Below, one piece after another: positions 14,517-63,626 of a stretch of 64,000 nt of DNA. Position 1 is the stretch's first letter, and every line of letters begins with the position of its first letter. The notes below the pieces were generated by a model. The model saw only the letters and a list, made by a program, of their open reading frames with translations, did not search any database and was not told the origin of the DNA. The stretch is from a virus (lineage: Duplodnaviria > Caudoviricetes). The position numbers and the translations under genes were made by a program. The stretch is from IMG/VR virus record IMGVR_UViG_3300044878_000205, positions 1 through 64,000 of that record; one strand, 5' to 3'.

Positions 14517-14590
14517 CCCGGACAGGCCCGGTCACCCCTCACACAGCCCCGGCCCGCACAGCGGGTTTTTTTACGTCTGGAGAAACATGC

Positions 14591-16393
14591 ATGACCGAGA
14601 TTTCCGCGCTAGAAGCCTACGCAGGCCAGATATCGGAAGCGGCGCAGCTTTCGACTGCGGCAGCAGAACTACAGCACCGCTTTGTCCATGGTGGCGTGGA
14701 TGAGGTCATCCAGACCGAATCTGGCCCGCTGCCGTCGCTGGCCAAGTGGCGCCAGGATTTAGCGCTGCTGGAGACGCTGCTGGCCGACCCGAACGATCCG
14801 AGTAAGGGGGTAGGGAAAATTCCCTCGGCGATTCGCACCGTCGGCACGGTGGCTGAGATGGTGGCCATGTCCGGGTGGGTGGCTGGGCAGCGCGTGCAAA
14901 CCTTGGGGTACTACGCCTTGGGTGATGGCGGGGCTAACGTGTACACGGTGGTCGCCAAGGGGGCGTCAGTCGTGGATGGCGGGCGCTTCATCGCCACCTC
15001 GAATGCCGGGCTATTGTTTCGCGGCGAGTTTATCAATGGCGAAGTCCGGGTCAAGCAGTTCGGTGCTGCCTTCAACGTTGCGGTGAATGACACCTTACCG
15101 TTTGCATTGGCCACGTTGTTTGCCCGCACGCGGGGGTATTGCCCGGTAAAACTGGAACCGGCCACGATCCTGATCGACCCGTGGACGCCGGGCAACAAGG
15201 ATGTGTTGGAAGGGGCTGGGCGAGGTCGCAGTTTCATCAAGGGCACCGCGGGCACTCACGTCTTAAAGCTCAGCAGTAAAGCCGTGGGGGTCGTCACCGA
15301 TCGTTTAGACCCATGTAAAGACGTCAAGTTGCGGGATTTCACCGTCCTCGCCGACAACGCCGATTTTGGCATCTACGTGAACTTCGGGTTATTCCTCGAC
15401 CTGGATCGGATTACCGTGTGGAACGCCAAGGTGTGCAACGTGTTTATTGCGTACTGCTTTGGCTGTGACTTCGGCGATCTGACGTACGAGTACGGAAAAG
15501 GCACGGGGCTCGAGTTCGGCAACAACCGGTTTGGCTGGCCCAATATCGTGGGCGAATCCCCGGTGTTGAACCACGGCAACTGTATCCGGCGGGCGCGTGG
15601 ATACAGTAATGGCCTGGGCTTGGTCGCCAGACCCGCCACCGTCAGCGGCGCTATTGATGGGGCCGGTTCGGTGTGGGGCCCGGGTTTCGTCAATGATATC
15701 GGCCTGGTCTACAACGAACTCAATAATGGGACTGGGGTTGTGGTGCTGCCCGGAATGGGCTACACGCTGGCGATGGTGTACAACGAGAAAAACGACAACT
15801 TAGCACTGCCGGCGGACACTCGCACTGAGGTGTATGCCAACAGCAGTGAGGCGTCTATTGGTGACGTGTTTACCGAATACGGTGGCAATCATGCTGTCTG
15901 GAACGCCAACGTGCTCTGTATCAACAACCACCGTGGGGTACAACTCAACGGCCCCGGCTTCGTCAAGATCACCGGGCTGTACAAGGGCACCTACGCCACC
16001 AATCCCCGCCTAGTTCCGCTGCTGATCTTCTCCGCCAAGGGCAACAAGTTGGAACTTACTAACAGCTTTACTTTGCCGGCCAACTTGCCGCCTGAATCTT
16101 CCCGGCAGTATGAGCGCAGCGGCGCCTACCGCATGTACCCGGAGGTCACCATTGAGGATGCGGCGACGCTGACAGCGGGCCCGAACATCCGCATCTACAA
16201 AAAGTCGGATGGGACGTCGGTCTACAATGGCACTCTCTTGATGACAGGCGCGCAGACAGCGGGCACGCGGGTAAAGCTGCCGGCCTTGGACTTTTTATGG
16301 GACCCGGCGGAAACCTATCGAATTCAGTTTTATGGGTTGGATGGTTACGCCGGCCGGGTCGGCATTAGTCTGTATGTCGAGGTGATGGTCTGA
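14591..16393 (+). CDS. Tailspike / receptor-binding protein, putative beta-helix depolymerase (copy 1, 600 aa)
   Basis: GGAG RBS; N-terminal ~68 aa shared with 52569..54947; GYY..GDGG and VKQFGA motifs; G/N-rich core. Confidence 0.75.
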   Translation: MTEISALEAYAGQISEAAQLSTAAAELQHRFVHGGVDEVIQTESGPLPSLAKWRQDLALLETLLADPNDPSKGVGKIPSAIRTVGTVAEMVAMSGWVAGQRVQTLGYYALGDGGANVYTVVAKGASVVDGGRFIATSNAGLLFRGEFINGEVRVKQFGAAFNVAVNDTLPFALATLFARTRGYCPVKLEPATILIDPWTPGNKDVLEGAGRGRSFIKGTAGTHVLKLSSKAVGVVTDRLDPCKDVKLRDFTVLADNADFGIYVNFGLFLDLDRITVWNAKVCNVFIAYCFGCDFGDLTYEYGKGTGLEFGNNRFGWPNIVGESPVLNHGNCIRRARGYSNGLGLVARPATVSGAIDGAGSVWGPGFVNDIGLVYNELNNGTGVVVLPGMGYTLAMVYNEKNDNLALPADTRTEVYANSSEASIGDVFTEYGGNHAVWNANVLCINNHRGVQLNGPGFVKITGLYKGTYATNPRLVPLLIFSAKGNKLELTNSFTLPANLPPESSRQYERSGAYRMYPEVTIEDAATLTAGPNIRIYKKSDGTSVYNGTLLMTGAQTAGTRVKLPALDFLWDPAETYRIQFYGLDGYAGRVGISLYVEVMV

Positions 16394-16547
16394 CGCCAGT
16401 GAAGGCCTATGGCGGGGCGCCCCGCCACACCTCCCAGGCGGCTCGCTGAGTTTAAAATACCCTTAAAGTTAGGCGTGTATGCAGCAGCAAAGCCGGTTCG
16501 GTTAGTGTAAAGTTGCCACACTTAATTGAACTGGCTGAGGGGTACTT

Positions 16548-17693
16548 ATGCAGGATGCAAAACGGTTTCGGGCGCTCGATAGTTTTAGGGGACTCTTTGC
16601 GCTATCCGTGGTTATTTATCATATGGATATTGTCGGGACCTTCACAGACTTAGCGTTTTTTCGACATGCCGATTTATTTGTGGAGTTCTTTTTTGTCTTG
16701 AGCGGGTTTGTCATGGCACATGCTTATGGCAAAAAAGAACGCGTGGATTTTCGGCGGTTTGTGATTGCTCGGACGTTCAGACTGTTGCCGCTGCACTGGC
16801 TAATGCTGGCAGTCTTTATAGTGTTAGAAGTCTGCAAGTCAATTGCTTATAGCAAAGGTATTTCGTTTAACTATGAGCCTTTCACCGGCGCCGCTGCACC
16901 GTCTGAAATCCTCCCGAATGCCCTGTTGCTTCAGTCGTGGACCAGCTTGACCGACCCGTTGTCGTTTAACTATCCGTCCTGGAGCATCAGCGTCGAATAT
17001 TACATGTACATGATTTTTCTGGCGGTCTTAGCGGTCGGGCTCAAGCAAAGGGTGTTGGTCTGGGCGGCCATAGCGGCATTGGCCTTTGTGGCCTTAACCT
17101 CGGATGTTGATATCCTGACGCCGAGCGCACTGCGCGGCTTGTCATGCTTCTTTGCGGGCGCGTTGTCCTATGTGCTGTATCGTTATATCAGCGACAAAGT
17201 GTCTTGCAGCTTTAAAGTACTTACGTGTTTAGAGCTGCTGTCGTTGCTGTTGGTTGTCCTGCTGCTGTCGTTTAACTTTGACAGCAAGGTGCTACTGGCC
17301 AGCCTGCTGTTCTGTTTGGTGGTGGTGGTGTACGCGTTCGATGGGGGCGCCGTGTCCAAAGCACTAGATACCCGCTGGTTTTCCTTGGTCGGCAAAGTCT
17401 CCTATTCAGTTTACCTCACGCATGCCGCAGTGTGGTTTTGCACCCTTTCCGGGTTCATCGTTATGCAAAAGGTCTTCGGTATTGAGCTGGCGCCGATGAT
17501 TGATGACAAGCGCTACATTGATACAGGCAACCTGCTTTTAAATAATGTTCTGGCGGTGTCTGTGTTATTGATTGTTATTGGTGTTTCTGTCGTAACGTAC
17601 AAGTACGTCGAAGTGTGGGGCCAGAGCATCGGCTCACGCATCATTAATAGAGGATCGAAGTTTAGCGCGATGCCGGAGATTGGCCGTCCATAA
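16548..17693 (+). CDS. Acyltransferase-3 (OafA/YrhL-like) membrane O-acyltransferase, moron
   Basis: LDSFRG..A..V..YH, VEFFFVLSGF, WSISVE and G.VSYSVYL.H motifs; many TM segments; AT-richer than flanks. Confidence 0.9.
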   Translation: MQDAKRFRALDSFRGLFALSVVIYHMDIVGTFTDLAFFRHADLFVEFFFVLSGFVMAHAYGKKERVDFRRFVIARTFRLLPLHWLMLAVFIVLEVCKSIAYSKGISFNYEPFTGAAAPSEILPNALLLQSWTSLTDPLSFNYPSWSISVEYYMYMIFLAVLAVGLKQRVLVWAAIAALAFVALTSDVDILTPSALRGLSCFFAGALSYVLYRYISDKVSCSFKVLTCLELLSLLLVVLLLSFNFDSKVLLASLLFCLVVVVYAFDGGAVSKALDTRWFSLVGKVSYSVYLTHAAVWFCTLSGFIVMQKVFGIELAPMIDDKRYIDTGNLLLNNVLAVSVLLIVIGVSVVTYKYVEVWGQSIGSRIINRGSKFSAMPEIGRP

Positions 17694-21086: not shown

Positions 21087-21134
21087 GCGAATTAGCGAAT
21101 TAGCTATTGAGATACGTCGGTCGCTATGTAAAAT
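21087..21134 (+). promoter_or_regulatory. 8-bp repeat array abutting a sigma70-like promoter
   Basis: GCGAATTA-GCGAATTA-GCTA then TTGAGA-N16-TAAAAT; same at 59757-59804. Confidence 0.65.
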
Positions 21135-21474: not shown

Positions 21475-21966
21475 ATGAGTGTCCTCTATACCCTGCCGCT
21501 AATTGACGGTCCGCTGACGTTGACCCTGGACGGTGACGCGTTGGCCGCCTTGAACCGCTATCGGCAGCTTTTGGTCTGGTCGGTCTCTCCCTGGCTTGGC
21601 CCACCGGGCGAGCCGGTGCATGAGGGATTGATCGAGGCAATGACTACGCTGGCCGATGCGATGTCGAGGTTGTCCAAGGATGCGCGCCGTGTGCCCGCTG
21701 ATCCCACGCAAGGAGCCCCCGCCCGGCCATCCGTATTGATTAATGGCGTCGAGTACGTGCCCCGCGCCGAGGTGCCGGAGCTGACCGACGAACGCCTGCA
21801 GCGCGCCCTGGGCGAGCTGGTGGCCATCCAGTATTTCCGCGAGGACCACAAGGCGGTTCGCCAAGCCTGGGACGCGCTCAAGGCGCTGGCCCCCGAGTTG
21901 GCCGAGCTGGCCGCCCGCGACTCGCAGGCCGCGTATTATCGAATCCACGGCACTCCCGACGACTGA
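21475..21966 (+). CDS. Hypothetical protein, copy-1-specific
   Basis: AAAGGAG RBS; absent from copy 2. Confidence 0.7.
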   Translation: MSVLYTLPLIDGPLTLTLDGDALAALNRYRQLLVWSVSPWLGPPGEPVHEGLIEAMTTLADAMSRLSKDARRVPADPTQGAPARPSVLINGVEYVPRAEVPELTDERLQRALGELVAIQYFREDHKAVRQAWDALKALAPELAELAARDSQAAYYRIHGTPDD

Positions 21967-21980
21967 AAGGAACCCCCGCC

Positions 21981-22223
21981 ATGCCGACCTATCACGACCG
22001 CTACGCCGCCCGCCTGCGGGCCTTTGTCTCAACGTGGTCCGGCCACAACATGGCCCATATCGCCTACCTGTCCGGGCGCAAGGCGCGCTCCCAGGGCCGT
22101 TCGCGGGGCTGGTCGTATGCTGGTGTCCTGACCTATCCGGCGCAGCGCCTGGCCCGCCTTGGTTATGTCGATGAGGCGCGCGGCCTGCCGGACCGGCTGG
22201 AGCGTGAGCGGTGGCAGGATTGA
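21981..22223 (+). CDS. Hypothetical 80-aa cassette-like ORF
   Basis: Starts in the shared GAAAGGAACCCCCGCCATG leader; ends 10 bp before the dif-like site. Confidence 0.7.
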   Translation: MPTYHDRYAARLRAFVSTWSGHNMAHIAYLSGRKARSQGRSRGWSYAGVLTYPAQRLARLGYVDEARGLPDRLERERWQD

Positions 22224-22232
22224 GCCCCGCGC

Positions 22233-22260
22233 GTTACGAGTAACGGCGTTTATGTCAAAT
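22233..22260. other. dif-like XerC/XerD recombination site 1
   Basis: GTTACGAGTAA-CGGCGT-TTATGTCAAAT (11-6-11); right arm matches the XerD arm TTATGTTAAAT at 10/11. Confidence 0.7.
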
Positions 22261-22274
22261 CGCACGGCACACAA

Positions 22275-22340
22275 GGCTACCAAAGGGTGGCCTTTTTTTG
22301 TGCCCGCCGTTACCACTTTGCGGTAAAATGGACTACCGTT
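22275..22340 (+). promoter_or_regulatory. Terminator followed by promoter with palindromic operator
   Basis: GGCTACC-AAAG-GGTGGCC plus T run, then TAAAATGG-ACTA-CCGTTTTA; equivalent at ~60938-61020. Confidence 0.55.
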
Positions 22341-22396
22341 TTAGCGTGTTCTGGTTTTAGAGCGCGTCACCCCACACCCCGAAAAGGAGATCCCGC

Positions 22397-22750
22397 ATGA
22401 CCCTGCTGACCCCGATAATTCGCAAAGACACCCCGGACGCGGAGTACCGCTTTTTTGTCTACTGCCCCAACGACGCAGACTTCACCTACTACCGCAGCGC
22501 AGAGGACCGCGACAAGGACGCTGACCGGGTGATCCAGTCCTATCTCGATGATGGCTGGGATGAAATGGTCGAACAGGTGGTGGCTGGGGAAATGACCCAC
22601 TTCTGCGGGCAGGTCGGTCGCGAAGATCGACCCGCCGAGAGCGAGCTGGATGAAGAGCAGTGCGACGGCACCGGCAAGCATTGGGGCGAGTGGGATTACA
22701 CCTGCAATTACGATCTGCTGCCGTTGGCAGAGCTAGAGGTAGCGGCATGA
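22397..22750 (+). CDS. Acidic hypothetical phage protein
   Basis: AAGGAG RBS; coupled to next ORF. Confidence 0.7.
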   Translation: MTLLTPIIRKDTPDAEYRFFVYCPNDADFTYYRSAEDRDKDADRVIQSYLDDGWDEMVEQVVAGEMTHFCGQVGREDRPAESELDEEQCDGTGKHWGEWDYTCNYDLLPLAELEVAA

Positions 22751-30511: not shown

Positions 30512-31801
30512 GTGCCGAAAACCCTGCAGGTCGCGCTGTCCGATGCGGCCATCAAAAAGCATGCGGCTGACCCTGCTGTTCGCGAGCTCAACGACCCGCG
30601 GCACCCCTTGCGCTTTCGCTACCGGCTCAAGGATCGCACTCAGGGCAGTTGGCATGTGGTGCGTCGTGGTCAATGGAAGAAGGCCGGCAACTGGCCGGAA
30701 ATCAACGCCCGGACCATGCTCGACAACCTACCAGCGGTGTTGTCGCGCCTGCAGGTTGATCCGGCGGCGGTGGCCACGGTCGGTGCCTGGAGTAGTGTCG
30801 GCCAGTTGCTTTCCTGGTACGCCGAACGGGTCCAAGTCGGGCGCACCTTGTCCAAGCCGCGGCAAAGCACCGTGCTCTCGGCGATCCGCAGGCAACTGGT
30901 ACCGCGCCTGGGTGATCTGCCCTTGGCCGACCTCAATAAGACCAGCCTGGACGAGCGCCTGTACCTGCCCCTACAAGCCGAAGCCAGCCTGGCGCATGTC
31001 CGCGCGGTGTTCGCCATCCTCAAGTTGGCCTGTCGTCGGGCCGTGGCCATGGACCGTCTGCCGACCGATCCGCTGGCTGGGGTGTCGTTTGGGCAGTTCA
31101 ATAAAACCAACATCAAACCCAAGGGTGCGCGTCTGCGACATACCGCGGTACCGGCGCTGCTGGCTCATTGGGCGGCGTCCTATGTCACCGCACCGCGCCA
31201 CGTGACCTTTGCCGTGCTGATGTTGGCCCATGGCACCCGCCTCAATGAAACCCGTTTGGCCCGCTGGCAGGACGTCGACCTGGTCAATGCCGAGTGGTTT
31301 ATCCCGGCGCGGGTGACCAAGGGTGGCCGAGACCATGTCCTGCCGCTGACCGTCCAGGCGTTGGCCTTCCTTCAACAACATAAACGTCTTCAACAGGGGC
31401 GTGGTTATGTTGGGGCCTTTCTCTTTCCCTCGACCACCCGATCCGGCCAGCCCCTGAGTCGTGCTCAAGCCTTTGAATTGTTCACCTGGTTAGGCCAAGG
31501 CGAATGGACCAGTCACGACCTGCGCAAATTGGCCAGAACCACGTGGGCCGAGTTGGGTGTGGATTCGGTGGTCGGTCGCTTGTTGCTCAATCAGGCCCTG
31601 CCCACCCTCGAAGCCACCTATGTGCAAACCACTGCCCTGGTGCGCAAGCGTGAGGCCCTGGAGCGCTGGCACGCCTGGCTCGATGAGCGCGGGTTTGCCG
31701 CCCTGCACGGTGCGACCCCGGCAAGACCGGTCGCCACGGCCACCCCCGTTCAGCCCGCGTCCGCCGTGGCCTGCGCGGCCTTTTCCCAACCTAACGTATA
31801 A
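30512..31801 (+). CDS. Tyrosine recombinase / integrase
   Basis: GGAGG RBS and GTG start; GTRLNE (R), TKGG (K), HDLRK (HxxR), ATY (Y). Confidence 0.88.
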   Translation: MPKTLQVALSDAAIKKHAADPAVRELNDPRHPLRFRYRLKDRTQGSWHVVRRGQWKKAGNWPEINARTMLDNLPAVLSRLQVDPAAVATVGAWSSVGQLLSWYAERVQVGRTLSKPRQSTVLSAIRRQLVPRLGDLPLADLNKTSLDERLYLPLQAEASLAHVRAVFAILKLACRRAVAMDRLPTDPLAGVSFGQFNKTNIKPKGARLRHTAVPALLAHWAASYVTAPRHVTFAVLMLAHGTRLNETRLARWQDVDLVNAEWFIPARVTKGGRDHVLPLTVQALAFLQQHKRLQQGRGYVGAFLFPSTTRSGQPLSRAQAFELFTWLGQGEWTSHDLRKLARTTWAELGVDSVVGRLLLNQALPTLEATYVQTTALVRKREALERWHAWLDERGFAALHGATPARPVATATPVQPASAVACAAFSQPNV

Positions 31802-37077: not shown

Positions 37078-38300
37078 TGAAAGTATTAAAGAAACTCGGC
37101 CAGTTGATGGGCCGCAAGAGCGATCCCCTGGTCATCGACACGCCGGAAAAATTGGCGCGCGCCCTGGGGATCGGCTACGACAGCACCGCCGGGCAGATGG
37201 TCACCACCACCAGCGCCATGCAGCAGACGGCGGTGTTCAACTGCGTGCGGGTGCTGGCCGAATCGGTGGGCATGCTGCCCTGCCGGCTGTTCAAGAAGTC
37301 CGGCCGCGACTTGCTGCCGGCCACCGATCACCGGCTGCATGAGCTGTTGACCATCGCACCGAATGACTACATGACCGCCCAGGAGTTTTGGGAGCTGCTG
37401 GTGGCCTGCCTGTGCCTGCGCGGCAACTTCTTTGCCTACAAGGTCGTGGCCCTGGGCAACGTGGTCGAGCTGCTGCCGCTCAACCCGTCGATTGTCACGC
37501 CCAAGCTCAAGGACGATTGGACGGTCGAGTACAAAGTCGACTTTGCCGACGGCACCCGCTATCTGTCCCAGGATGAAATCTGGCATGTGCGCCTGTTCAC
37601 CCTGGACGGTCTCAACGGTCTGAATCCGATTGCCTATGCCCGGCAAGCCCTGGGCTTGGGGCAGGCGATGGAGGCGCACGCGGCGAAGTTGTTCACCAAC
37701 GGCGCGGTCACCTCCGGCGTGTTGTCCACCGAGCAGGCGTTGAGCGACGAAGCCTTCGGGCGGTTGAAGACGCAGTTCCAGGGCGAGCACATGGGCGTGG
37801 CCAACGCCTATAAGCCGATGATCCTGGAGATGGGCCTGAACTGGAAACCGATCAGCCTCAATGCCCAGGACACGCAGTTCATCGAATCCAGGCGCCTGAG
37901 CGAGTCGCAGATCTGCGGCCTGTTTCGCGTGCCGCCGCACCTGGTGGCGAACCTGGAAAAGATGACCCTGAGCAACGTCGAAAACATGGGCATGAGCTTC
38001 GTCAATTACTCGTTGGTGCCCTACCTGACCCGCATCGAACACCGCATTCAAGTCGGCCTGCTGAAGAAGTCTGAGCGAATTAGCTATTTCGCGAAGTTCA
38101 ACGCCGGCGCGCTGATGCGTGGCGACCTCAAGGGCCGCTACGAATCCTACGGCAAGGGCATTCAGTGGGGGATTTTGAGCCCCAACGATTGCCGCGAACT
38201 GGAAGACCTCAACCCCCGCGAGGGCGGCGATATCTACCTGACCCCGATGAACATGACCACCAACCCCGAGGCGGACGATGCAAACAAAACAAAGACGTGA
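37077..38300 (+). CDS. HK97-family portal protein
   Basis: AVFNCVRVLAE, PNDYMT, F.VPPH and GILSPND.R.LE motifs. Confidence 0.96.
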   Translation: MKVLKKLGQLMGRKSDPLVIDTPEKLARALGIGYDSTAGQMVTTTSAMQQTAVFNCVRVLAESVGMLPCRLFKKSGRDLLPATDHRLHELLTIAPNDYMTAQEFWELLVACLCLRGNFFAYKVVALGNVVELLPLNPSIVTPKLKDDWTVEYKVDFADGTRYLSQDEIWHVRLFTLDGLNGLNPIAYARQALGLGQAMEAHAAKLFTNGAVTSGVLSTEQALSDEAFGRLKTQFQGEHMGVANAYKPMILEMGLNWKPISLNAQDTQFIESRRLSESQICGLFRVPPHLVANLEKMTLSNVENMGMSFVNYSLVPYLTRIEHRIQVGLLKKSERISYFAKFNAGALMRGDLKGRYESYGKGIQWGILSPNDCRELEDLNPREGGDIYLTPMNMTTNPEADDANKTKT

Positions 38301-51724: not shown

Positions 51725-52504
51725 ATGCAGAGAATTTCCAGCTGGACCGATCTGGTCGCAGCCCTTGGGCTGTTCCGTTATGGCACCGTGACGGGCGGGG
51801 TAGCCCCGACCCCGCTCAAGGCGGAGTGGCTGAACATGGTTCAGGAAGAGTTGGCGAACGCCATCCTGGCTTTTTTGCCTGAGCTGGATGCCAATGACCC
51901 GACGCAACTGCTCAAGGCGATTCAAGCCTCGGGCGCTAACTATGCGCTGAAAGCGACCACGCTGGCTGGGTACGGCATTGTGAATGCCTACACCAAGCCG
52001 GAGACCGATTGGCTGCTGTCACAGAAAGCCAACAACGCCATCACCCTGGCCGGCTATGGCATCGGCGATGCCTACACCAAAACGGCCACCGACACGCTGC
52101 TGGCCGGCAAAGCCAACAACGCCACGACCCTGGGCGGCTATGGCATCGCCGATGCTTACACCAAAGCGGCCACCGACACGCTGCTGGCTGCCAAGCAAGA
52201 CAAGAACACGGCTTTGATGGAGGCCACCGGGTGGCGCCTGGACAAAGCGACCGGGTTTCTGGAGCAGTGGGGGAGCGGCGTTTGCCCGGCGGATACCACC
52301 ACCGCGCCGATTAACTTCCCCACGCCCTTTGCCGAGGTCTACAACTGCTTTGGCAACAAGATCAACACCAACTCGGTGGACGGGGATGGCAACGCCGCTG
52401 GGGCGTTTGCTACCAGCGCAACGCAGTATCAGTTGTTCAACGATACGAACCTGATGGCGGTCACCGTGCATTGGCGCGCGATTGGCAAGGCGCCCGGCTA
52501 TTAA
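51725..52504 (+). CDS. Short tail fibre (copy 2)
   Basis: Homologue of 13737..14516, same length. Confidence 0.85.
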   Translation: MQRISSWTDLVAALGLFRYGTVTGGVAPTPLKAEWLNMVQEELANAILAFLPELDANDPTQLLKAIQASGANYALKATTLAGYGIVNAYTKPETDWLLSQKANNAITLAGYGIGDAYTKTATDTLLAGKANNATTLGGYGIADAYTKAATDTLLAAKQDKNTALMEATGWRLDKATGFLEQWGSGVCPADTTTAPINFPTPFAEVYNCFGNKINTNSVDGDGNAAGAFATSATQYQLFNDTNLMAVTVHWRAIGKAPGY

Positions 52505-52568: not shown

Positions 52569-54947
52569 ATGACCGATATCACGGCGCTGGAGGCTTACGC
52601 GGGTACGCTGTCGGAGGCGGCGCAGTTATCAATGGGCGCGGCCCTACTGCAACATCAATTCGTCCATGGCGGAGTTGATGAGGTCATCCAGACAGAATCA
52701 GGGCCCCTGCCATCGCTGGCCAAATGGCGCGTCGACTTGGCGACCATTGAAACGGCGCTGGCCAACCCGAATGTCGGGCCGGGCATGGTCGGTTGGAAGC
52801 GCAGTGCGTTGTCTGATTCGATTAAAACAATCGGCCAGATGCTGTCGGCCCAGGCCTATAACGTCTGGGAGCACGCGAACCTCATCATTAGCAAGCCCAC
52901 ATCGGACCACCGCACCTGGGACTGGGCGCCCGCTATCGTGGCCGCCTGGAATGCAACGCCGATTGGCGGCTCCCTTGTTATTCCGATGGGGGTACATATT
53001 GGTTCGGCCGTTACCCTGACAGACAAGGCGGTCAATCTGTACTGCATGGGTCCGATCACGGTCGCCGATGGTAATTTTACGGCCCTGTACTTCGACGGCA
53101 CGGCCAATGTGACCGAGTACCCTGGCACCATCCTGACCGGCATTGCCGGTGGCGATACGAAGCTGAATTTTATCCCTGGAATGGCGCCTGCGCTTAACCC
53201 GACCGACTACTACTTGGTCATCTACTCGCTTGAGGCCAACGTCAACCGGGTCAACGAGACGTACTACATCCCTTACAGCAAGCGGGAGACTCACGGACTC
53301 AGCCACTATGACTGGTCGCTCCACGATCCAATCCTGTACACCTATGCTGATCTGTCGGGTGTCACCTTGCGGTTCATCAAGAAGGCCGCCAGGACCAAGA
53401 TCGTCGGCCTGACGCTGCAGGCGGACGCCAGCACAAACCGCTCTGCGCGCGACCTTCTGCGCACCCGCTGCAAGAGTTGCGTTGACTTCGAGGGTCTGCA
53501 CATCAACAGCGCCCTGGCCGATCGCGCTGGGTTTGGCTTCGAAATCTACGAGTGTTTTGATTTCGTGCTCAACTCGCCGCGGGTATCCGGCTACAACGTA
53601 AGCGGGGTGGACTCGTACAAGATCAGAAGTTTCATGTCGGCGCACCTGGTCTTTAACGACTACATTGATGCCACTGATGCTGACCCTGTCTCGCCCAATA
53701 ACAAAACAGAGCGCGCCTACGCCTCTATGTACAGCAACATGATCACCTTCAACAATTGCTACTTGAATGGGATCGATGAGCACTACGGCAGTCGATACGT
53801 GATTAACGGTGGCAGCCTGTCCCATCGCGGTATCGGGTTTGCAGGGCGAGACGTGACGATCAACGGGACGAAGTTTACCGGCCCTGGCGCGCTGTTCCAG
53901 CCCCGCGATGATTCGCCGTCTTGTCACGGCACGCTGCTCATCAATAACGTTGAGCTCGACGCGGTTAGCCAGTTGATCCAGGGTGAAACAGGCATCATCA
54001 CGGACCCGCTGGGGCGCACCACGCCGTTCAAAATGTTCGACCGGATACTTGTCGATGGAGTGGTAGTAAAAGGTGGTCTTCAGTCTTGGGAGAACATTAT
54101 TTCGTTCCGCGGCATCCGCAACGCAACAACCTTCACTTCATCCAAGACCACATTGATTGATGTGCGCAACTTGAAGGTCTACAGCGAGCGGACCAATGTC
54201 AACCACAGCATCATGCAGTTCGCGAGCATCTGGGTCGAAACGGTTAACGCAGAAAACTGGGAGATCGCTGATAGCGCGGTGGCGTACCGGGGAGACATTC
54301 GATACTTGGGTCCGGCCTACGATGCGCTCAACATCGGCGAGCTGAAAGTTGCCAACAGCCGGGTGACTGTTTACGGGATAAGGAACACGGCCAAGTTCAC
54401 CATGCGCGGCGGATCTCTGGCCGGTAGCGGTGAGAGCCTTCTGGTGGAGGGGGGCTTTGGTGCCGTGGCGGTATCGCTGAAAGGGGTCGAGCTGAACAAG
54501 CCCCTGGCAGAGTCGGTGCCAGTGGCCGGAGTCAACCCCACTTGGGATATCGTCGATTGCACGATAAATGTTGCCCCTAGCAACTTGACTGGGCGAATTG
54601 CGCGAGGTCTTCGCAATAGCATAGCTCTCGGCGTGACCATTCCTGGAGCGCTGGTGGGTAAGCTGCGGATCTACGAGAACCCCGCAATGTTTTCGCCTAC
54701 CACGATCACGGGTAGCGCGTCGTGGACGATTCCCGCTATCGCGTCGGGTGCGTCATTGCCTAACAACTTTACCCTGGCAGGTGTCGCGTTTGGCGATCAA
54801 GTCGATGTTGCCATATACGCCCCCTCCGTTTCGGCAACGGCTCAAGTCACCACGGCCGACACGATTGCCGTGGTGATCAACAACAACTCTGGGACTTCGG
54901 TGACGCTTGGGGCTCAGACGCTACGGTTCACGGTAAGAAAGCTCTAA
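52569..54947 (+). CDS. Tailspike / receptor-binding protein (copy 2, 792 aa)
   Basis: Shares only the N-terminal ~68 aa with the copy-1 spike; long beta-rich body. Confidence 0.75.
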   Translation: MTDITALEAYAGTLSEAAQLSMGAALLQHQFVHGGVDEVIQTESGPLPSLAKWRVDLATIETALANPNVGPGMVGWKRSALSDSIKTIGQMLSAQAYNVWEHANLIISKPTSDHRTWDWAPAIVAAWNATPIGGSLVIPMGVHIGSAVTLTDKAVNLYCMGPITVADGNFTALYFDGTANVTEYPGTILTGIAGGDTKLNFIPGMAPALNPTDYYLVIYSLEANVNRVNETYYIPYSKRETHGLSHYDWSLHDPILYTYADLSGVTLRFIKKAARTKIVGLTLQADASTNRSARDLLRTRCKSCVDFEGLHINSALADRAGFGFEIYECFDFVLNSPRVSGYNVSGVDSYKIRSFMSAHLVFNDYIDATDADPVSPNNKTERAYASMYSNMITFNNCYLNGIDEHYGSRYVINGGSLSHRGIGFAGRDVTINGTKFTGPGALFQPRDDSPSCHGTLLINNVELDAVSQLIQGETGIITDPLGRTTPFKMFDRILVDGVVVKGGLQSWENIISFRGIRNATTFTSSKTTLIDVRNLKVYSERTNVNHSIMQFASIWVETVNAENWEIADSAVAYRGDIRYLGPAYDALNIGELKVANSRVTVYGIRNTAKFTMRGGSLAGSGESLLVEGGFGAVAVSLKGVELNKPLAESVPVAGVNPTWDIVDCTINVAPSNLTGRIARGLRNSIALGVTIPGALVGKLRIYENPAMFSPTTITGSASWTIPAIASGASLPNNFTLAGVAFGDQVDVAIYAPSVSATAQVTTADTIAVVINNNSGTSVTLGAQTLRFTVRKL

Positions 54948-55034
54948 CGGGGCTCCCTCCTCCTGTTGTTTTGGGAGGGTGGGGCTGGATCAAAACTTAA
55001 AATTTACCGTTCGTAAACGGTAGGGGCTCTTTTA

Positions 55035-55289
55035 ATGGCACTTAAAAAAAACCTTGAATTCCGTGGCATCTTGGTTCCGGATGCCTACATCAAGATTGCA
55101 ACCACCACGATCATCGCCGGCAATGAGTGGATTGACTTCTGCGTGCATTACCTGGCCACGGATACTGGATCACCCTTTAACAGCGTGAACGTGCAGTGCG
55201 CCTACAATCTGCTGGGCGACAATCCCATCAAGCAGGGCTATGAGCACCTGAAGACGCTTCCTGAGTTCGAGGGCTGCACCGACTGCTGA
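55035..55289 (+). CDS. Small tailspike-associated protein
   Basis: MAL.K...DAYIKI...NPIKQGYEHLKTLPEF...DC pattern typical of genes after tail fibres; copy-2-specific. Confidence 0.65.
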   Translation: MALKKNLEFRGILVPDAYIKIATTTIIAGNEWIDFCVHYLATDTGSPFNSVNVQCAYNLLGDNPIKQGYEHLKTLPEFEGCTDC

Positions 55290-55344
55290 CAGTTAGTCGG
55301 CAGAACGCCGTGGATGTGGAGCCCGAAGGCTCCATTTTGACTTG

Positions 55345-56379
55345 TCAGGCTGCTTGATATTGTCGGATTCGCTGAAACAGGGATTCCGCAGAGACTGATT
55401 TTGGCGGGGCCAAAAGTGCGCCGAGCCGGTAACGCTTGATGATGGCCTGGGCGACCAGGGGCGCTGCTATGCCGATCAGCGTACCAATGATCAGGTGAGC
55501 TGCCGGCGTCTGCACCCCGAGCAACTTGCTAAGCGCGACTCGCGCACCGCTCCCCGCAAGAATATGCATCAGATAAATCGTCATTGACGACGCTCCTACA
55601 TACATGAGCCACTTTATGTTTATTCGGCTGAGGCACATGGATACTGCAACAATGAAGAGTATTGAAACTGTTGCGAGAATTAAAGATTCAATCCCTTCTG
55701 ATTCAGAAGACAACGCCATGACGTCATGAAAAATATATTGCCCGGCTATAAACAGGGCGCCAAAAGCAATTGCAAGTGCTGCGTACGTCCTCTCGAATAT
55801 TGATTTTATATCGTCGAAGCAAATCCCAAGGATGAAGAAAAATGTATTCCCCAGGATGAATTCAGTGATCATATTTGAAGGCATAGCACCCTTGATGGTG
55901 TATAGAACAGCAAAGGCAGTTAGTATCAATAAACTCCGAGACTTATCAAATAGCGTGTACACCAATGAGCTGGTGACGAATACCAAAAATAATGCATACA
56001 AGAACCAGAACTGAGCCCTTGGCTCCCACGCGAACGACAGAACCTCGCCGAATGTCACGCTGCCATTTGTGTATTTTGACAGGACGCTTTCCATGGAACC
56101 CTGCAGTAGAGACCATATAACGAATGGGTAAAGTATCGTGTCGACCTTGTTAATTATCAGGCCTGTTGCGCCGCGGCTTTTGAGGGAGTTGTAAAAAAAC
56201 AGGCCTGACAGGAAAAAGAAAAGAGGCATGTGGAAGCTGTAAATAATGCTGTCCACCAGCTGGAATATGCTTTCATCCATCTGCATCCCAGCACTGTGTA
56301 CGCCGCGCGCAACATGCCCGTACACGACAAGGATTATTCCTATTGCCTTTGCGTAGTCTACCCAGGAATTTCTTTCCAT
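55345..56379 (-). CDS. Acyltransferase-3 (NolL / fucose O-acetylase-like), moron
   Basis: WVDYAKAIGIILVVYGH, FHMPLFFFLSG, WFLYALF and IYLMH motifs; AT-rich. Confidence 0.9.
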   Translation of the reverse strand: MERNSWVDYAKAIGIILVVYGHVARGVHSAGMQMDESIFQLVDSIIYSFHMPLFFFLSGLFFYNSLKSRGATGLIINKVDTILYPFVIWSLLQGSMESVLSKYTNGSVTFGEVLSFAWEPRAQFWFLYALFLVFVTSSLVYTLFDKSRSLLILTAFAVLYTIKGAMPSNMITEFILGNTFFFILGICFDDIKSIFERTYAALAIAFGALFIAGQYIFHDVMALSSESEGIESLILATVSILFIVAVSMCLSRINIKWLMYVGASSMTIYLMHILAGSGARVALSKLLGVQTPAAHLIIGTLIGIAAPLVAQAIIKRYRLGALLAPPKSVSAESLFQRIRQYQAA

Positions 56380-57946: not shown

Positions 57947-58002
57947 GGTCGGAGTTTAGTGGACGGTCCCCTTCTGTGCAAGCCCGTTGCTGGGGAGCAA
58001 CC

Positions 58003-58101
58003 ATGCTGCATTTCGACCGTTTGCCGCGGCTACATCCGCGGTCCGTCCGCACCACCCGCACCCTTGCCGCCGCTGTCGGCGTCGTAAGGGGCTCGCTATG
58101 A
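58003..58101 (+). CDS. Rep leader peptide (32 aa, copy 2)
   Basis: MLHFDRLPRLHPRSVRTTRTLAAAVGVVRGSL; ATGA overlap with rep. Confidence 0.75.
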   Translation: MLHFDRLPRLHPRSVRTTRTLAAAVGVVRGSL

Positions 58102-58991
58102 GCCTGCGTGTGGTCAAGTCGTTTCTCCCGGCGGGCTCGCCGGCCAGCGCGGTGTATGCCGCCCTCGATGCCGCCCTCGATGCGCCTGCCGCCGCCCCGC
58201 AACAGCCCCCCTTTAAGAAAGTCCTGCCGCCGGTCGGCCATATGGCCGTGCGTCGTCCGCGCCGTTTGTCGGCCAAGCAGGCGTCGACCTTCCTCGGTGA
58301 AGCGGTCAAGCGCATCAAGGCCGAGGCCAGCGACCGCACCGGTAAATACCTGCGCTGCCTGGACACCGTGCACCAAGCCGGCGGCCGCACCCGCGCCGAG
58401 CGCTGGCAGGCCCTGGCAGCGATTGCCGAGCCGCTGTTGGCCCGTCTGGACATTGCCACCGGCTGCCTGGGCTACCTGGACCAACACGGCCAGTTCCGCC
58501 TCAACCGGCAGAACGGCTTGGCCGAGGATGCCGGCATCAGCCCGACCCGCCTGTGCCGGCTGCTGAAGGCCCTGGAGAAAGCCAAGTACACCCTGCGCAA
58601 GATCAAGCGCCTGTATCGCAACGGTAAGCGCTGGGTCTGCCGCATCACCATCTATGTGCGCCCGCGCTTCTTTATCGACCTCGGCCTGGGCTTCCTGCAC
58701 GCCGCCTCGCGCACCGCCAAGGCCAAGGCCTACCTGAAGAAGCGCCGCCAGGCGCAGGCCGTGCAGCAGCAAGCGCTGCTCGATGACGTGGCCGCCGCGC
58801 ATGACCGGCGCATGAGCCACCGCAACGCCGAGGCCGCCCGCGCCGAGACGCGCAAGGCCGCCGAGAACACCTCGCGCATCCAAGCGCTGCAGCACAAGGC
58901 CGGTGTCCTCTCGGACCTGGCCAAAGCCCACCCGGGCAAGGGCCATGCCGAGTTGATGGCCCTCTACCACCAGCTCCACCCCGCCTCCTGA
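58098..58991 (+). CDS. RepA-like initiator (copy 2)
   Basis: Homologue of 19456..20349. Confidence 0.7.
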   Translation: MSLRVVKSFLPAGSPASAVYAALDAALDAPAAAPQQPPFKKVLPPVGHMAVRRPRRLSAKQASTFLGEAVKRIKAEASDRTGKYLRCLDTVHQAGGRTRAERWQALAAIAEPLLARLDIATGCLGYLDQHGQFRLNRQNGLAEDAGISPTRLCRLLKALEKAKYTLRKIKRLYRNGKRWVCRITIYVRPRFFIDLGLGFLHAASRTAKAKAYLKKRRQAQAVQQQALLDDVAAAHDRRMSHRNAEAARAETRKAAENTSRIQALQHKAGVLSDLAKAHPGKGHAELMALYHQLHPAS

Positions 58992-59844
58992 GCCCCGCTC
59001 AACCCGCCCCGCTACCGGCGGTGCGTTCGCGTGTCCGCTCGTCTGTCAGCCCCGCACAACCCCCTGTCCTACGCCGTTTACGGTCCCCGCCACGCCAGTT
59101 TTCTCACGCCAATTCCCCTGCAGCCCCGTCCTTTTCCCGCGCGCCCGTCCAGGCCCCTAAAGCCTTTGGAATAACTGCAATTTTAGAGGTCGAGTGGTAC
59201 CACCCAAGGGTTAGAAACAGAGCCTTTCGGTTCAGTGGAGTGCTCTAGATCGGGACCTGACTCGATGCCATAGAAAGAATGCCTGCCCACTTCGCGCCTG
59301 GAGGCGCGGGGCAAGGGCACCCCTCGGCGTCGGTGCCGCCGCCGTTCCGTCAGTGAGGCGCCCTCCAGTTGCTGTGGGCCGGTCGGCGAGCGATTCCGAC
59401 CGCCACACCGCGTGCCGTCCCTTCGCGCCTTCACGCGCCGCCTGCGGCCAGTCAGTCGCGCAAGCGCTCCAGTGATCAATGAGCGGGGTGGGCTTGCCGA
59501 TTTTTCCCAGCCTGAAGCGCCGCGTGGCCTGTTCGGGCGTCGTCGGGTCTTCAGGTAAGGCGTGGCGTCAGGTAAGGCGGCGCGTGGTGCAGGCGCGCTG
59601 TGGTGGGCTCGGGCGTCAGGGCTGGTGCGCGCTCGGCCGGCGCGAAGGGACGGCGGGCGGTGGCGGTGGTCGCTGGATCTGCCGCCCGTGGCGAAATGTC
59701 TGAAAGCCTTGCGCGGCATGGCTTGCCGACCGTTTTTAACGTGAGAAGTTTCATAGGCGAATTAGCGAATTAGCTATTGAGATAAGCCGGTCGCTATGTA
59801 AAATGCCTCGTCCCCGGGCATTCCTGCCTGGCCCAGATGGAGCT

Positions 59845-60078
59845 GTGCCGTTGAGTTGCCAAGCCTTACACACCCAAATGAAGGAACATGCCCGGTGTCT
59901 GTCCCTGCCTCAAGTGGTCCGGTCGATTGAGAACCTGGGCGGCGGGAACTTGCCGGCGATTGAGCTGATCTTGCGCAGCCTGCTGCTCGATGTGTACGCC
60001 GAGCGTCAGGGCCTCGAGGCCGCCCGGCGGCTGATGGCGCAGGTGGGCATTGCCCAGCCGGGCGTGTTGCTGGCATAA
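59845..60078 (+). CDS. Conserved hypothetical protein (copy 2)
   Basis: Homologue of 21176..21409. Confidence 0.7.
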   Translation: MPLSCQALHTQMKEHARCLSLPQVVRSIENLGGGNLPAIELILRSLLLDVYAERQGLEAARRLMAQVGIAQPGVLLA

Positions 60079-60117
60079 CCTGAACTCCTCCCGGTGCGAC
60101 TGAAAGGAACCCCCGCC

Positions 60118-60342
60118 ATGCCGATGATCGACAGTGACACTTTCAAAGCCGAACTGGATGCCGCGAACGCTGCCCGCGAAGCGCTGGTAGACCATCAGAT
60201 TTTGCCGAAGCCGTATGATCGTGAGTGGCATCAAGCCGAAGGCGTGCGTCTGCTGGAGGCCTATCAGGCCGCCACCAATACGCTGGCCCATCAAATGAAA
60301 AGAGTGGTCGAGCTGGCCGAGACCGTGGCCCTGATTGGGTAG
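60118..60342 (+). CDS. Cassette-like ORF A (74 aa)
   Basis: Starts in the shared 19-nt leader. Confidence 0.72.
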   Translation: MPMIDSDTFKAELDAANAAREALVDHQILPKPYDREWHQAEGVRLLEAYQAATNTLAHQMKRVVELAETVALIG

Positions 60343-60384
60343 GCCCGTCGCGTTACCCCTAACGAACTGAAAGGAACCCCCGCC

Positions 60385-60633
60385 ATGTTCGACGAGTCCC
60401 CGCCGCTCACCGATGCCCAGGTCGCGGCCTTGGCCAAGCCCGGCGAAAGCTGGGCGGCCGCCCGCGACCGCGCCGCGCGCTTGTACCGCTGCGTGGTCGA
60501 GTGCTGGCCGTGCCCCGTCTGCAACGCCGGCGGCGTGCAGCCGTATGGCGGCTGGATTGAGGATGAGTTCAACGGCTGCGGCACTTGCGCCGCGATGTGG
60601 CGACATTTGCCCAAGCGCCCGAATAGTTTTTGA
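60385..60633 (+). CDS. Cassette-like ORF B (82 aa, two CxxC motifs)
   Basis: Starts in the shared 19-nt leader. Confidence 0.72.
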   Translation: MFDESPPLTDAQVAALAKPGESWAAARDRAARLYRCVVECWPCPVCNAGGVQPYGGWIEDEFNGCGTCAAMWRHLPKRPNSF

Positions 60634-60652
60634 CGAGAAAGGAACCCCCGCC

Positions 60653-60904
60653 ATGGAAAAAATAGTCCCGATTGACATTGATGAAAGTTGCGTCGAGCTG
60701 GTGCAGCGCTTCCAGGCCCTCGACCGCCAGGTCAACGACATGATCTTTGGCCCGCCGGGCTACGATCATGCGGTTGTGGAGGCGTTGCAGACTGAGCGCG
60801 CCAATGTCAGCAACCTGGCCATGTTTCACCTCGGCGTGGCGTTCCGGACGTGTGGCTATTTCGATGGACCGGGCGAAGCCGCCTCGAGGGAAATCGAAGA
60901 GTAG
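60653..60904 (+). CDS. Cassette-like ORF C (83 aa)
   Basis: Starts in the shared 19-nt leader; ends 5 bp before the dif-like site. Confidence 0.72.
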   Translation: MEKIVPIDIDESCVELVQRFQALDRQVNDMIFGPPGYDHAVVEALQTERANVSNLAMFHLGVAFRTCGYFDGPGEAASREIEE

Positions 60905-60909
60905 GCCGC

Positions 60910-60937
60910 GTTACCCATAACGCCGTTTATGTGAAAT
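60910..60937. other. dif-like XerC/XerD recombination site 2
   Basis: GTTACCCATAA-CGCCGT-TTATGTGAAAT; XerC-type CATAA inner end, XerD arm 10/11. Confidence 0.75.
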
Positions 60938-61072
60938 CGGCCCCCCCCTTTCGACCAAAGGTGGGGGCCTTTTTTTGTGCTCGCCGTTACCAGAATGCTA
61001 TAAAATGGACTACCGTTTTATAGTGTTCTGGTTTTACGCAGAGCCCGCCACTCACTCGAAAGGAAACCGCCC

Positions 61073-61366
61073 GTGCCCTGTTACACGCTCTACGACGAAG
61101 ACCGAAACCCGCGAGGCCATCTGTGTGGCGACCTGGGCGCGCATTGCGGTGAGTGCGGTGACCTCGGCACGAACCTGTGCGATTACCCGGTGGGTCAAGG
61201 CAAGACCTGCGACCGCCTGCTGTGCGATTACCACGCCCAACTGATCGCGCCGAACCTGCATTACTGCAGCCCGCATGCAGTCGAGTGGCGCGCGTTTCGC
61301 GATGCCGGCGGCGTGCGCCAGGAGCTGGAGAACGTGATTGCCTTTAAGGAGGAAAAGAAGAAATGA
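61073..61366 (+). CDS. Cys/His-rich putative Zn-binding protein, copy-2-specific
   Basis: CGEC...LCDY...TCD..LC..H...YC..H; AAAGGA RBS. Confidence 0.75.
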   Translation: MPCYTLYDEDRNPRGHLCGDLGAHCGECGDLGTNLCDYPVGQGKTCDRLLCDYHAQLIAPNLHYCSPHAVEWRAFRDAGGVRQELENVIAFKEEKKK

Positions 61367-62972: not shown

Positions 62973-63626
62973 TCAGGCCGCGGTCAGCCGCTCGAAGTGG
63001 TCGACGGCGGACTGGATGACTTCCAGGGCCTTGGCGCGCGGCCCCTTGTACGGGGTTTCGATAATCGAACGGCCTTCGTTCATGGCGTTGGCATAGGCGT
63101 CCTGGTGCTGGATCGCGCCGTCGAGCACGGCAAAGCGGGTCTTGCCCAGGTATTCACGTGCCGCGTCAATCGGCGCCTTGCGCGCGGTGGCCTTGCACAA
63201 GGCGTAGACGATGCGCTCCACCGGAATGCCGTGTTGATCGACCAGGCTGTTGGCCAGGGCGACCTGGGGTTCGAGGTCATCCAGGGTCAAGCCGGTAGGC
63301 AGAATCAGCAGCTGACAGGCTTTGGCGATCCGCACGGTTTCTTCGGTGGCGTTGGCCGGGCCATCGAAAATGAACAGGTCGGCATCCCCCGCGCGGCTGA
63401 GGGCGGTGGCGACGTTGCCATACAGTTGCACGGGCACATCGGGGGTGATGTTGGCGAACAGCCGGCGGCGTTGCCAGTTGGTGGCGGTGGCTTGTTTGGT
63501 GTCGAGGTCGATGATCTTCACCGCCCAGCTGGCCTGGGTGTACGCGGTGGCGAGGGCGCGGGCGAGGGTCGATTTCCACGCGCCGCCTTTCTGAGAAATG
63601 CAGCCAATGCCGTAGGGGTTTTGCAT
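62973..63626 (-). CDS. parA: ParA ATPase (copy 2)
   Basis: Homologue of 24930..25583; flanked by the same 8-bp arrays (62939-62965, 63645-63740). Confidence 0.9.
   Translation of the reverse strand: MQNPYGIGCISQKGGAWKSTLARALATAYTQASWAVKIIDLDTKQATATNWQRRRLFANITPDVPVQLYGNVATALSRAGDADLFIFDGPANATEETVRIAKACQLLILPTGLTLDDLEPQVALANSLVDQHGIPVERIVYALCKATARKAPIDAAREYLGKTRFAVLDGAIQHQDAYANAMNEGRSIIETPYKGPRAKALEVIQSAVDHFERLTAA

Follow-up and report, generated by a model that had tools for sequence, protein, structure and literature searches.

Probable repeat-mediated shuffling of small genes beside a single Xer site in Pseudomonas mobile elements

The 64,000-nt stretch analyzed here (the window; positions 1 to 64,000 of the virus record IMGVR_UViG_3300044878_000205) contains a row of three small open reading frames (ORFs), each of which begins with the same 19-nt leader, and the row ends at a dif-like site of the type recognized by the host recombinases XerC and XerD (XerCD). 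We found that this array is real, is widespread in Pseudomonas mobile elements, and is apparently undescribed. It is a case of repeat-mediated micro-gene shuffling that is new in its link to a single Xer site. Among relatives, the content and order of the row vary, the leader is confined to this locus, and each genome has one Xer-type site. From sequence comparison, we consider it rather probable that units of about 270 bp, located between a conserved first gene and the dif-like site, are swapped, added, and lost by short-homology recombination in the leader.

The leader 19-mer, GAAAGGAACCCCCGCCATG, matches exactly at 21965, 60102, 60369, and 60637, all on the + strand, with no fifth match in the 64-kb window when up to 3 mismatches were allowed; shuffled sequences contain a mean of 0.03 matches, compared with the 4 observed. 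The sequence-only reading of this DNA had described three unrelated ORFs that share the leader, as well as a fourth in another copy of the region, and both descriptions held, with the ORFs at 60118 (74 amino acids [aa]), 60385 (82 aa), and 60653 (83 aa) and the fourth at 21981 to 22223 (80 aa). An identity of 24 nt claimed between the two copies is present, but its true length is slightly greater, at 28 nt (21960 to 21987 and 60097 to 60124). Furthermore, "copy 1" and "copy 2" belong to separate phage genomes, called phage 1 and phage 2 below. As that reading had stated, the last ORF stops just ahead of the dif-like site (5 nt, from 60904 to 60910, in phage 2 and 9 nt, from 22223 to 22233, in phage 1), a putative terminator follows the site, and a putative promoter lies upstream. 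This promoter, whose hexamers TTGAGA and TAAAAT recur in phage 1 at 21107 to 21134, was the single promoter-like site in a pattern scan of 59600 to 61200, which found none at the leaders, and it is predicted to drive the array. We can add a half-site resembling an XerC arm at 60352, ahead of leader 2. The features of the array, all on the + strand, are the following.

59777 to 59804, +: sigma70-like promoter, TTGAGA-16-TAAAAT (pattern scan, 1 found versus 0.3 expected)
59851 to 60078, +: conserved first gene, 75 aa (family in 7 of 16 genomes; no Pfam, PHROG, or PADLOC match)
60102 to 60120, +: leader 1, Shine-Dalgarno-like GAAAGGA, fixed spacer, and ATG (exact 19-mer)
60118 to 60342, +: unit 1 ORF (ORF1), 74 aa, predicted helical hairpin (terminal unit in relative L027, 96% aa identity)
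60352 to 60364, +: XerC-arm-like half-site GTTACCCCTAA-CG in the tail of unit 1, just 5' of leader 2 (sequence comparison)
60369 to 60387, +: leader 2 (exact 19-mer)
60385 to 60633, +: unit 2 ORF (ORF2), 82 aa (N-terminal part common to other cassettes; C-terminal CxxC..CxxC)
60637 to 60655, +: leader 3 (exact 19-mer)
60653 to 60904, +: unit 3 ORF (ORF3), 83 aa, predicted helical hairpin (internal in L116, terminal in L082)
60910 to 60937, +: single Xer (dif-like) site GTTACCCATAA CGCCGT TTATGTGAAAT (arms 10/11 and 10/11, center 1/6 versus Pseudomonas chromosomal dif)
60939 to 60976, +: intrinsic-terminator-like G+C hairpin followed by T7 (read from the sequence; not listed by the pattern scan)

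Related loci were collected with the leader and with the site. An exact-leader search gave 27 viral loci, 20 of them with an Xer-like site downstream, and the reverse search by site gave 20 viral loci (partly the same contigs), 16 of which have the leader upstream. The Xer-like site is also carried by 9 of 401 Pseudomonas genomes; seven of these nine loci were taken (one had been counted already, and one unpublished genome was excluded), and five of the seven have a leader ORF no more than 540 bp upstream. After 7 loci without a site and 3 false sites (L014, L023, and L112) were dropped from the 60 loci forwarded and identical sites were merged, 38 sites were left. Arrays of 1 to 7 units occur at 33 of them and comprise 92 ORFs in 48 BLAST families, 32 of which are singletons. 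No multi-gene order was repeated among the 33 arrays, and the only recurring order is a lone C1 gene. The sequence-only reading had proposed a platform that can be expanded with promoterless micro-genes, each with a standard leader, and the tabulation of 19-mer loci in related genomes agrees with it: the number, order, and identity of the ORFs are all variable, rows end at an Xer-type site, and gene content is not fixed among the 38 sites. Because profile searches fuse some cassette families into looser superfamilies, the count of 48 overstates their independence. The Chao1 estimate of cassette families is about 93, and of 12 leader ORFs in a set collected later from the site, 9 have no match among the 92 unit ORFs.

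A row of small ORFs with fixed content would also result if a single small gene had been duplicated in tandem and its copies had diverged. The superfamilies just mentioned are in favor of this, as are the narrow unit length (about 270 bp; median, 264 to 277 bp) and the helical hairpins with a P-Y-D loop predicted for both ORF1 and ORF3. However, pairwise and profile searches found no similarity among the three window ORFs, which also speaks against diverged paralogues, and the pool contains helix-turn-helix (HTH), Lar-like, DUF551, and DUF7706 proteins. Every multi-gene array differs in content, so this explanation is contradicted already and has next to no probability.

The leader and site were also mapped in 16 near-complete genomes. 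A profile trained on these leaders gave 45 matches in the 2 kb upstream of the site, another 3 immediately downstream, and 0 elsewhere, and each of the 16 genomes has one full high-scoring Xer site. These genomes have differing structural modules, yet they have ParA, a repressor, and a tyrosine recombinase in common. The leader-plus-site layout was also seen in other prophages, some of them P2-like judged by gene order; in the conjugative plasmid pA506, where klcB, hicAB, and four small ORFs precede the site; and in the plasmid pPL2, whose row ends with an XerC arm and a degenerate XerD side. The gene pool is common to phage-plasmids, other prophages, and plasmids. No published description of this leader or array was found in the literature searched, a search with subscription papers, the pA506 genome paper, and supplements outside its scope, and the available parts of papers citing pA506 leave repeats unmentioned.

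Some loci lie at the edge of this set. In phage PARCL1pr (L028:8540-8750), the layout is the same, but the leader is degenerate and the left arm of the Xer-like site differs. At L330:2480-2740, a parA operon is followed by a homologue of ORF3 (87%) that has a degenerate leader and no dif-like site, which suggests that units also leave the platform. As a search key, the degenerate leader alone was unspecific, with a site downstream in 6 of 118 metagenome matches and 2 of 120 genome matches listed; degenerate-leader loci without a site, many of which spanned just ~600 bp, were treated as chance and dropped. Viral contigs queried with the first gene or ORF2 gave no confirmed locus.

Next, we examined where units begin and end. 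In homologous units with at least 80% DNA identity, 25-nt flanks were compared, with 1,580 pairs of unrelated junctions as the control. Where the previous gene differs, the 25 nt before a unit's own leader have a mean identity of 0.49 (n = 21), versus 0.51 in the control, and the 25 nt before the next leader have a mean identity of 0.80 (n = 17). BLAST segments of 94 to 97% identity begin at GAAAGG and finish inside the next leader (L012/L119, L009/L032, and L026/L105). In runs X3 and X5, contigs align with unit 2 over exactly 60369 to 60647 and have a different first unit ahead, and a contig in run X2 has 386 bases across the array instead of 915; run X1 has the exact array but, as possibly the source data, was excluded from support. 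In addition, six families were found both as last and as internal units. Taken together, the flank identities, BLAST segments, run contigs, and families in both positions point to a mobile unit that consists of leader, ORF, and tail, and the comparison shows sequence boundaries that run from leader to leader. Many unit stop codons fall inside the next leader. Units that are 93 to 98% identical have different neighbors on both sides, which argues for frequent and recent exchange. Go-back joints, expected of mini-circles, were not listed among assembled contigs, a result that does not show their absence.

The site that closes the row has a dif-like architecture (11-bp XerC arm, 6-bp center, and 11-bp XerD arm) that is conserved over the 38 sites. 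Compared with the chromosomal dif of a Pseudomonas genome, terminal sites match at 9 or 10 of 11 positions in each arm and at 1 of 6 in the center, an anatomy that would fit a plasmid dimer-resolution site that avoids the chromosome (PMC5357621). The first two center bases, CG, are kept in 37 and 38 of the 38 sites, and the remaining four vary. A hairpin comparable to the window's terminator lies 3' of most of the sites. The half-site at 60352 matches the host XerC arm at 9 of 11 positions and the XerD position at 3 of 11; i.e., it is without an XerD arm. Similar sequences, an XerC-like arm plus CG, occur at 21 of 59 internal junctions, and in 14 of the 21, the arm-to-leader spacing is fixed at 9 nt. 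CC-type arms make up 19 of the 21 internal arms and 1 of the 38 terminal arms; the terminal arm at 60910 is itself of the internal CC type, a contrary case. The spacer between arm and leader follows the upstream gene rather than the downstream gene.

These half-sites would be expected of an integrase-free integron built like a miniature integrative mobile element exploiting Xer (IMEX), in which circular units enter by XerC exchange at the terminal site, the old arm is left upstream, and the full site is regenerated downstream. Consistent with this are the arms and CG at the 21 junctions, the conserved CG of the terminal sites, the CC-type terminal arm of the window, and the pPL2 row that ends in an arm and a degenerate XerD side. 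The L005/L039 pair, in which the identity of a shared gene stops at the arm instead of the leader, agrees as well, and IMEX integration through XerC alone is established (PMC5357621). However, the scheme predicts that arm-leader DNA should go with the downstream gene, and it goes with the upstream gene. The distribution of CC-type arms indicates that the half-sites are mostly not left-over terminal arms, an origin that we therefore mostly rejected. An arm is missing at 38 of 59 junctions, and arm frequency has no peak next to the site (8 of 27, 9 of 17, and 4 of 10). Finally, a dispersed palindrome in many genomes could account for the conserved CG. Overall, we regard entry of units by XerC as quite unlikely.

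The palindrome, CGTTAC-NN-GTAACG, occurs 8 to 10 times per genome, within genes and before terminators, in the relatives G001, G003, G004, G010, G011, G013, G017, G018, G020, and G021:C27 (loci L290 to L311), most of which have a KlcB-like gene. It is scattered through most relatives that have a KlcB-like gene; in the window's phages, it is found only at the array. Given this dispersal with a KlcB-like gene, it may be the binding site of another protein. It is a candidate centromere or operator, and by its sequence it would read as an XerC arm on both strands.

Conservation of the leader could have another cause. It may be kept for regulation, as a start-associated binding site or through RNA pairing with the terminator, with rare illegitimate joints filtered by selection. 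The spacer, ACCCCCGCC, is conserved past Shine-Dalgarno needs (66 to 72 of 72 at most positions), and the leader pairs with the 3' arm of its own terminator at a mean of -16.1 kcal/mol (n = 16), versus -9.6 for other terminator-like hairpins (n = 369), although this pairing control is loose and the genomes are related. The fixed 9-nt spacing at 14 of the 21 arm-bearing junctions recalls the palindrome-plus-repeat sites termed extended start-associated sequences (ESAS; PMC3203893), and the 3' breakpoints are scattered. On the other hand, start-associated sequences (SAS) are spread over a genome arm and tied to gene families (PMC3203893), whereas this leader is in one locus, and the near-identical units with different neighbors indicate frequent, recent exchange in place of rare joints. 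For these reasons, we think regulation is an unlikely explanation for the leader. The terminator stem after the site (60938 to 60976 in the window; also, e.g., L032) resembles the leader spacer, a likeness that may reflect common ancestry, RNA-level control, or chance.

A dedicated site-specific recombinase, for example the conserved tyrosine recombinase, might instead cross over at the leader. Its family is present in 16 of 16 genomes, even though these are seemingly kept as plasmids, and the 5' boundary of the units is sharp. However, the gene does not encode IntI, and ~8 kb separates it from the array. The leader lacks symmetry and can accommodate substitutions as well as altered spacing (canonical in 72 of 92 cases), and no such gene was seen beside the arrays of other prophages and plasmids in the stretches read, which are not whole-genome tests. 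A dedicated enzyme is thus very improbable.

Short-homology recombination in the leader is the explanation that we prefer, and it would work as follows. One upstream promoter would transcribe the row to the terminator, and each leader would provide ribosome binding for its gene. A crossover between leader i on one co-resident circle and leader j on another would reassort rows, and unequal leader pairing would alter the unit number. The second crossover could fall in another leader, in the GCCGC-GTTAC repeat (present in the terminal site and many junctions), or further downstream. Host XerCD would normally resolve dimers at the site but might also resolve co-integrates if the 6-bp centers match, exchanging just the leader-to-site block, which would account for the closeness of the hot spot to the site. 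L016 and L043, which have the same terminal gene and whole 28-bp site and differ in downstream DNA, fit such a co-integrate resolution. The cassette genes would likely be accessory and directed at the host or a competitor.

Several observations weigh against this explanation. All recombination is deduced from comparison and none was observed, the 16 to 19 nt of homology is short, and scans of 65 and 63 proteins turned up no annealing protein of the Erf, RecT, or Sak type. Nor are the homologous pairs independent of one another; C2, a family of seven members, dominates them. Four of the 17 downstream identity values are low (0.48 to 0.56); two of these come from a misplaced next-leader call in L012, and two reflect a real tail change in L150. 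Because the leader profile was trained on these leaders, only the absence of matches elsewhere is informative, and the strict call gave no unit at 5 of the 38 sites. The 3' ends are rougher than the 5' ends, with several shared ORFs breaking in the last codons, and the final residue is Glu in 17 of 33 unrelated terminal ORFs, compared with 3 of 59 internal ORFs. The 3' breaks and the Glu bias suggest that unrelated genes were fused to a common tail ahead of the site, a pattern that is not explained by leader crossovers alone. As for the Xer step, in Mantel tests the XerC arm had a weak association with downstream DNA (r = 0.22, P = 0.017) and none with the terminal ORF (r = -0.04), which argues against routine use of Xer exchange.

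The Mantel tests, although low in power, gave no support to routine Xer exchange of the terminal gene, which was therefore set aside. In 32 of 33 arrays, the last ATG lies 200 to 263 nt from the site, and the length quartiles of terminal ORFs are 76/80/81 aa, versus 89/92/102 aa for the first downstream gene. A length rule for terminal ORFs was rejected since the spread differs only without two long outliers (P = 0.004 versus 0.15).

Integrons consist of IntI, attI, and attC, and one promoter reads promoterless single-gene units of variable order. The array likewise appears to have promoterless single-gene units, variable in number and order, behind one predicted promoter. The label "integron-like" in the sequence-only reading is not supported as a mechanism: there is no IntI, there is one full Xer site per genome, and the unit boundaries lie in the leader instead of where Xer would cleave. 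A single tyrosine recombinase was found, ~8 kb away, and it scores 15.6 bits on TIGR02249, for which the cut-off is 265. Inspection by eye, without an attC model, found no attC-like sites; the junctions are mostly 14 to 70 nt and have no shared long inverted repeat. Unlike in integrons, it is the 5' end of each gene that has the conserved repeat.

In our analysis, the array would seem to work most like the promoter early stem-loop (PeSL) cassettes of T4-type phages and the conserved upstream (CUP) repeats of IncN plasmids, and it looks like SAS/ESAS. In the T4-type phages RB49 and phi1, PeSLs are intergenic repeats that end in a Shine-Dalgarno sequence and start codon before orphan genes, and recombination between them shuffles, adds, and deletes genes without a dedicated recombinase (PMC2839356). 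Each PeSL is ~100 bp long and includes a promoter and a stem-loop; a genome has ~50 of them, distributed among several regions, and mini-circles have been shown (PMC2839356). In both systems, boundaries of gene gain and loss fall within the repeat. In contrast to PeSLs, the repeat here is 19 nt (~45 nt with the arm), has no promoter of its own by pattern scan, and occupies one locus that abuts an Xer site; with one promoter-like site in 59600 to 61200, it does not hold a sigma70 promoter and stem-loop. CUP repeats are conserved and precede small plasmid maintenance genes, and rearrangements have been attributed to recombination between them; they contain a promoter and an ArdK site and head operons (PMC5371602). 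The array shares with them conserved upstream repeats before small plasmid-borne genes. It differs in that each leader serves as the translation start of one gene and the row is closed by an Xer site; no promoter-like site lies at the leaders, and no Ard family was found among 65 cassette proteins scanned in Pfam.

The SAS of cluster K mycobacteriophages is a short asymmetric ribosome-binding-site repeat, sometimes with an upstream inverted repeat, present in 11 to 19 copies across the right genome half and conserved along with gene families (PMC3203893). The leader is likewise an asymmetric ribosome-binding-site repeat in one orientation, conserved beyond the Shine-Dalgarno sequence, but its copies stand in one hypervariable row and mark exchange boundaries, with 0 outside the locus in 16 genomes. 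Two systems share the Xer side. In Acinetobacter, plasmid dif (pdif) modules are flanked by paired complete, inversely oriented sites (PMC6449649 and PMC12907356), and fusion and resolution of co-integrates by Xer are known (PMC5790767). Both systems have a plasmid-borne XerC/XerD site with accessory-gene turnover, and co-integrate cycling is a plausible shared step. The pdif pairing is not seen here, where each of 16 genomes has one complete site and at most XerC-side half-sites lie between units. IMEX such as CTXphi, VGJphi, and TLCphi are whole elements with an attP that targets chromosomal dif (PMC5357621). They resemble the array in XerC-side similarity, a divergent XerD side, and tandem stacking beside an Xer site, but the unit boundaries here are at the leader and not at the XerC cleavage position (L005/L039 being the one contrary case), and the center, with 1 of 6 bases matching, is incompatible with host dif. 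Fast swapping at phage hot spots is also known for P2/P4 (PMC13586616).

The contig that holds the window is a 76,588-bp circle with two related ~38-kb genomes, mostly 85 to 92% identical, that connect via a 174-bp identical stretch (near 38069 to 38242 and the contig ends). The circle is either an assembly figure-of-eight or a true co-integrate (heterodimer). Phage 1 has a HK97-type head, contractile tail, lysis genes, tyrosine recombinase, ParA, and a CI-like repressor by annotation, and phage 2 has orthologues plus a Rep-like gene, whose DNA has matches in Pseudomonas plasmids. With ParA and Rep-like genes present and related elements deposited as Pseudomonas plasmids, the two are likely phage-plasmids. 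The context features and the array of phage 1 are as follows.

57987 to 58991, +: Rep-like gene of the phage-plasmid, upstream context (start codon uncertain; NCBIfam RepA_IncFII_LM, E = 3e-4, below cut-off)
61073 to 61366, +: first gene of a second variable row past the terminator, with a weaker leader (other families at +160 to +170 in relatives)
62973 to 63626, -: ParA partition ATPase, context (orthologue at 24930 to 25583 matches ParA_partition, E = 6e-24; family in 16 of 16 genomes)
21475 to 21966, +: phage 1, first-slot ORF, 163 aa, divergent leader (sequence)
21965 to 21983, +: phage 1, leader (exact 19-mer)
21981 to 22223, +: phage 1, terminal unit ORF, 80 aa, singleton family
22233 to 22260, +: phage 1, Xer-like site GTTACGAGTAA CGGCGT TTATGTCAAAT (arms 9/11 and 10/11 to host dif)
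30512 to 31801, +: phage 1, conserved tyrosine recombinase, ~8 kb from the array (PF00589; family in 16 of 16 genomes)

The Xer-site centers of the two phages differ at one base (CGGCGT and CGCCGT), which could hinder resolution. Past the site, a conserved module of ~165 bp (window regions 60977 to 61366 and 22300 to 22750) precedes the second small-gene row with its weaker leader, so there is variability on both flanks of the site. The tyrosine recombinase at 30512 to 31801 is kept in all 16 genomes, which otherwise look like plasmid prophages. The tail-fiber regions (14483 to 17693 and 52569 to 56379) are wholly different, each phage having its own O-acetyltransferase-like gene, in opposite orientations, and 84-bp tandem repeats within the tail-fiber gene (13962 to 14177 and 51950 to 52194) differ in copy number. 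The 82-kb record pHN2 (L333/L334, NZ_CP085886.1) consists of two tandem copies of a related ~41-kb phage-plasmid, whose protein accessions are identical, and this doubling may be an assembly matter.

The cassette ORFs of the window match nothing in Pfam, PHROGs, NCBIfam, or PADLOC. We found 8 relatives of ORF1, 6 of ORF2, and 11 of ORF3, the named ones being hypothetical proteins; within the 92 unit ORFs, ORF1 shows distant similarity to other cassette families (E = 1e-4 to 2e-2). The helical hairpins of ORF1 and ORF3 were predicted with pLDDT (predicted local distance difference test) scores of 87 and 85, and Foldseek at E ≤ 0.001 found no match for ORF1 (viral) or ORF3 (viral and PDB). Atlas matches were unnamed or under 0.9, and that of ORF2 is only a lead. 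Searches of Rfam gave two sub-threshold chance matches only, and no RNA data set holding the array was listed, run X21 being probably DNA. Of 65 cassette proteins of relatives compared with Pfam, 9 match: 2 Lar-like (just below cut-off), 2 HTH, 2 DUF7706, 1 DUF551, and 2 weak zinc ribbons. The sequence-only reading had named these genes as anti-defense candidates; the Lar-like family, from one relative, keeps that role alive as a lead, and the window ORFs themselves lend it nothing.

A broader scheme, on balance improbable, can be offered tentatively. The locus might be an integrase-free exchange platform of Pseudomonas phage-plasmids, prophages, and conjugative plasmids, in which the leader supplies the first crossover and host XerCD the second, so that the leader-to-site block would be traded between co-resident replicons. 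The XerC half-sites at junctions would then be intermediates of the cycle, and the pool of ~80-aa proteins might be undescribed anti-defense or exclusion factors.

In this array, the shuffling repeat is no more than a translation start of 19 nt, is associated with one Xer site, and spans elements with different capsids, tails, and lifestyles. Because the crossover is predicted to fall within 20 bases, with two candidate catalysts, the trading of tiny genes between temperate phages and plasmids is testable. The array is also an easily mined library, with 48 families so far, nearly all without a Pfam, PHROG, or PADLOC match, in which each gene comes with its own ribosome-binding leader, and the pattern of leader plus site can find more members in Pseudomonas data sets.

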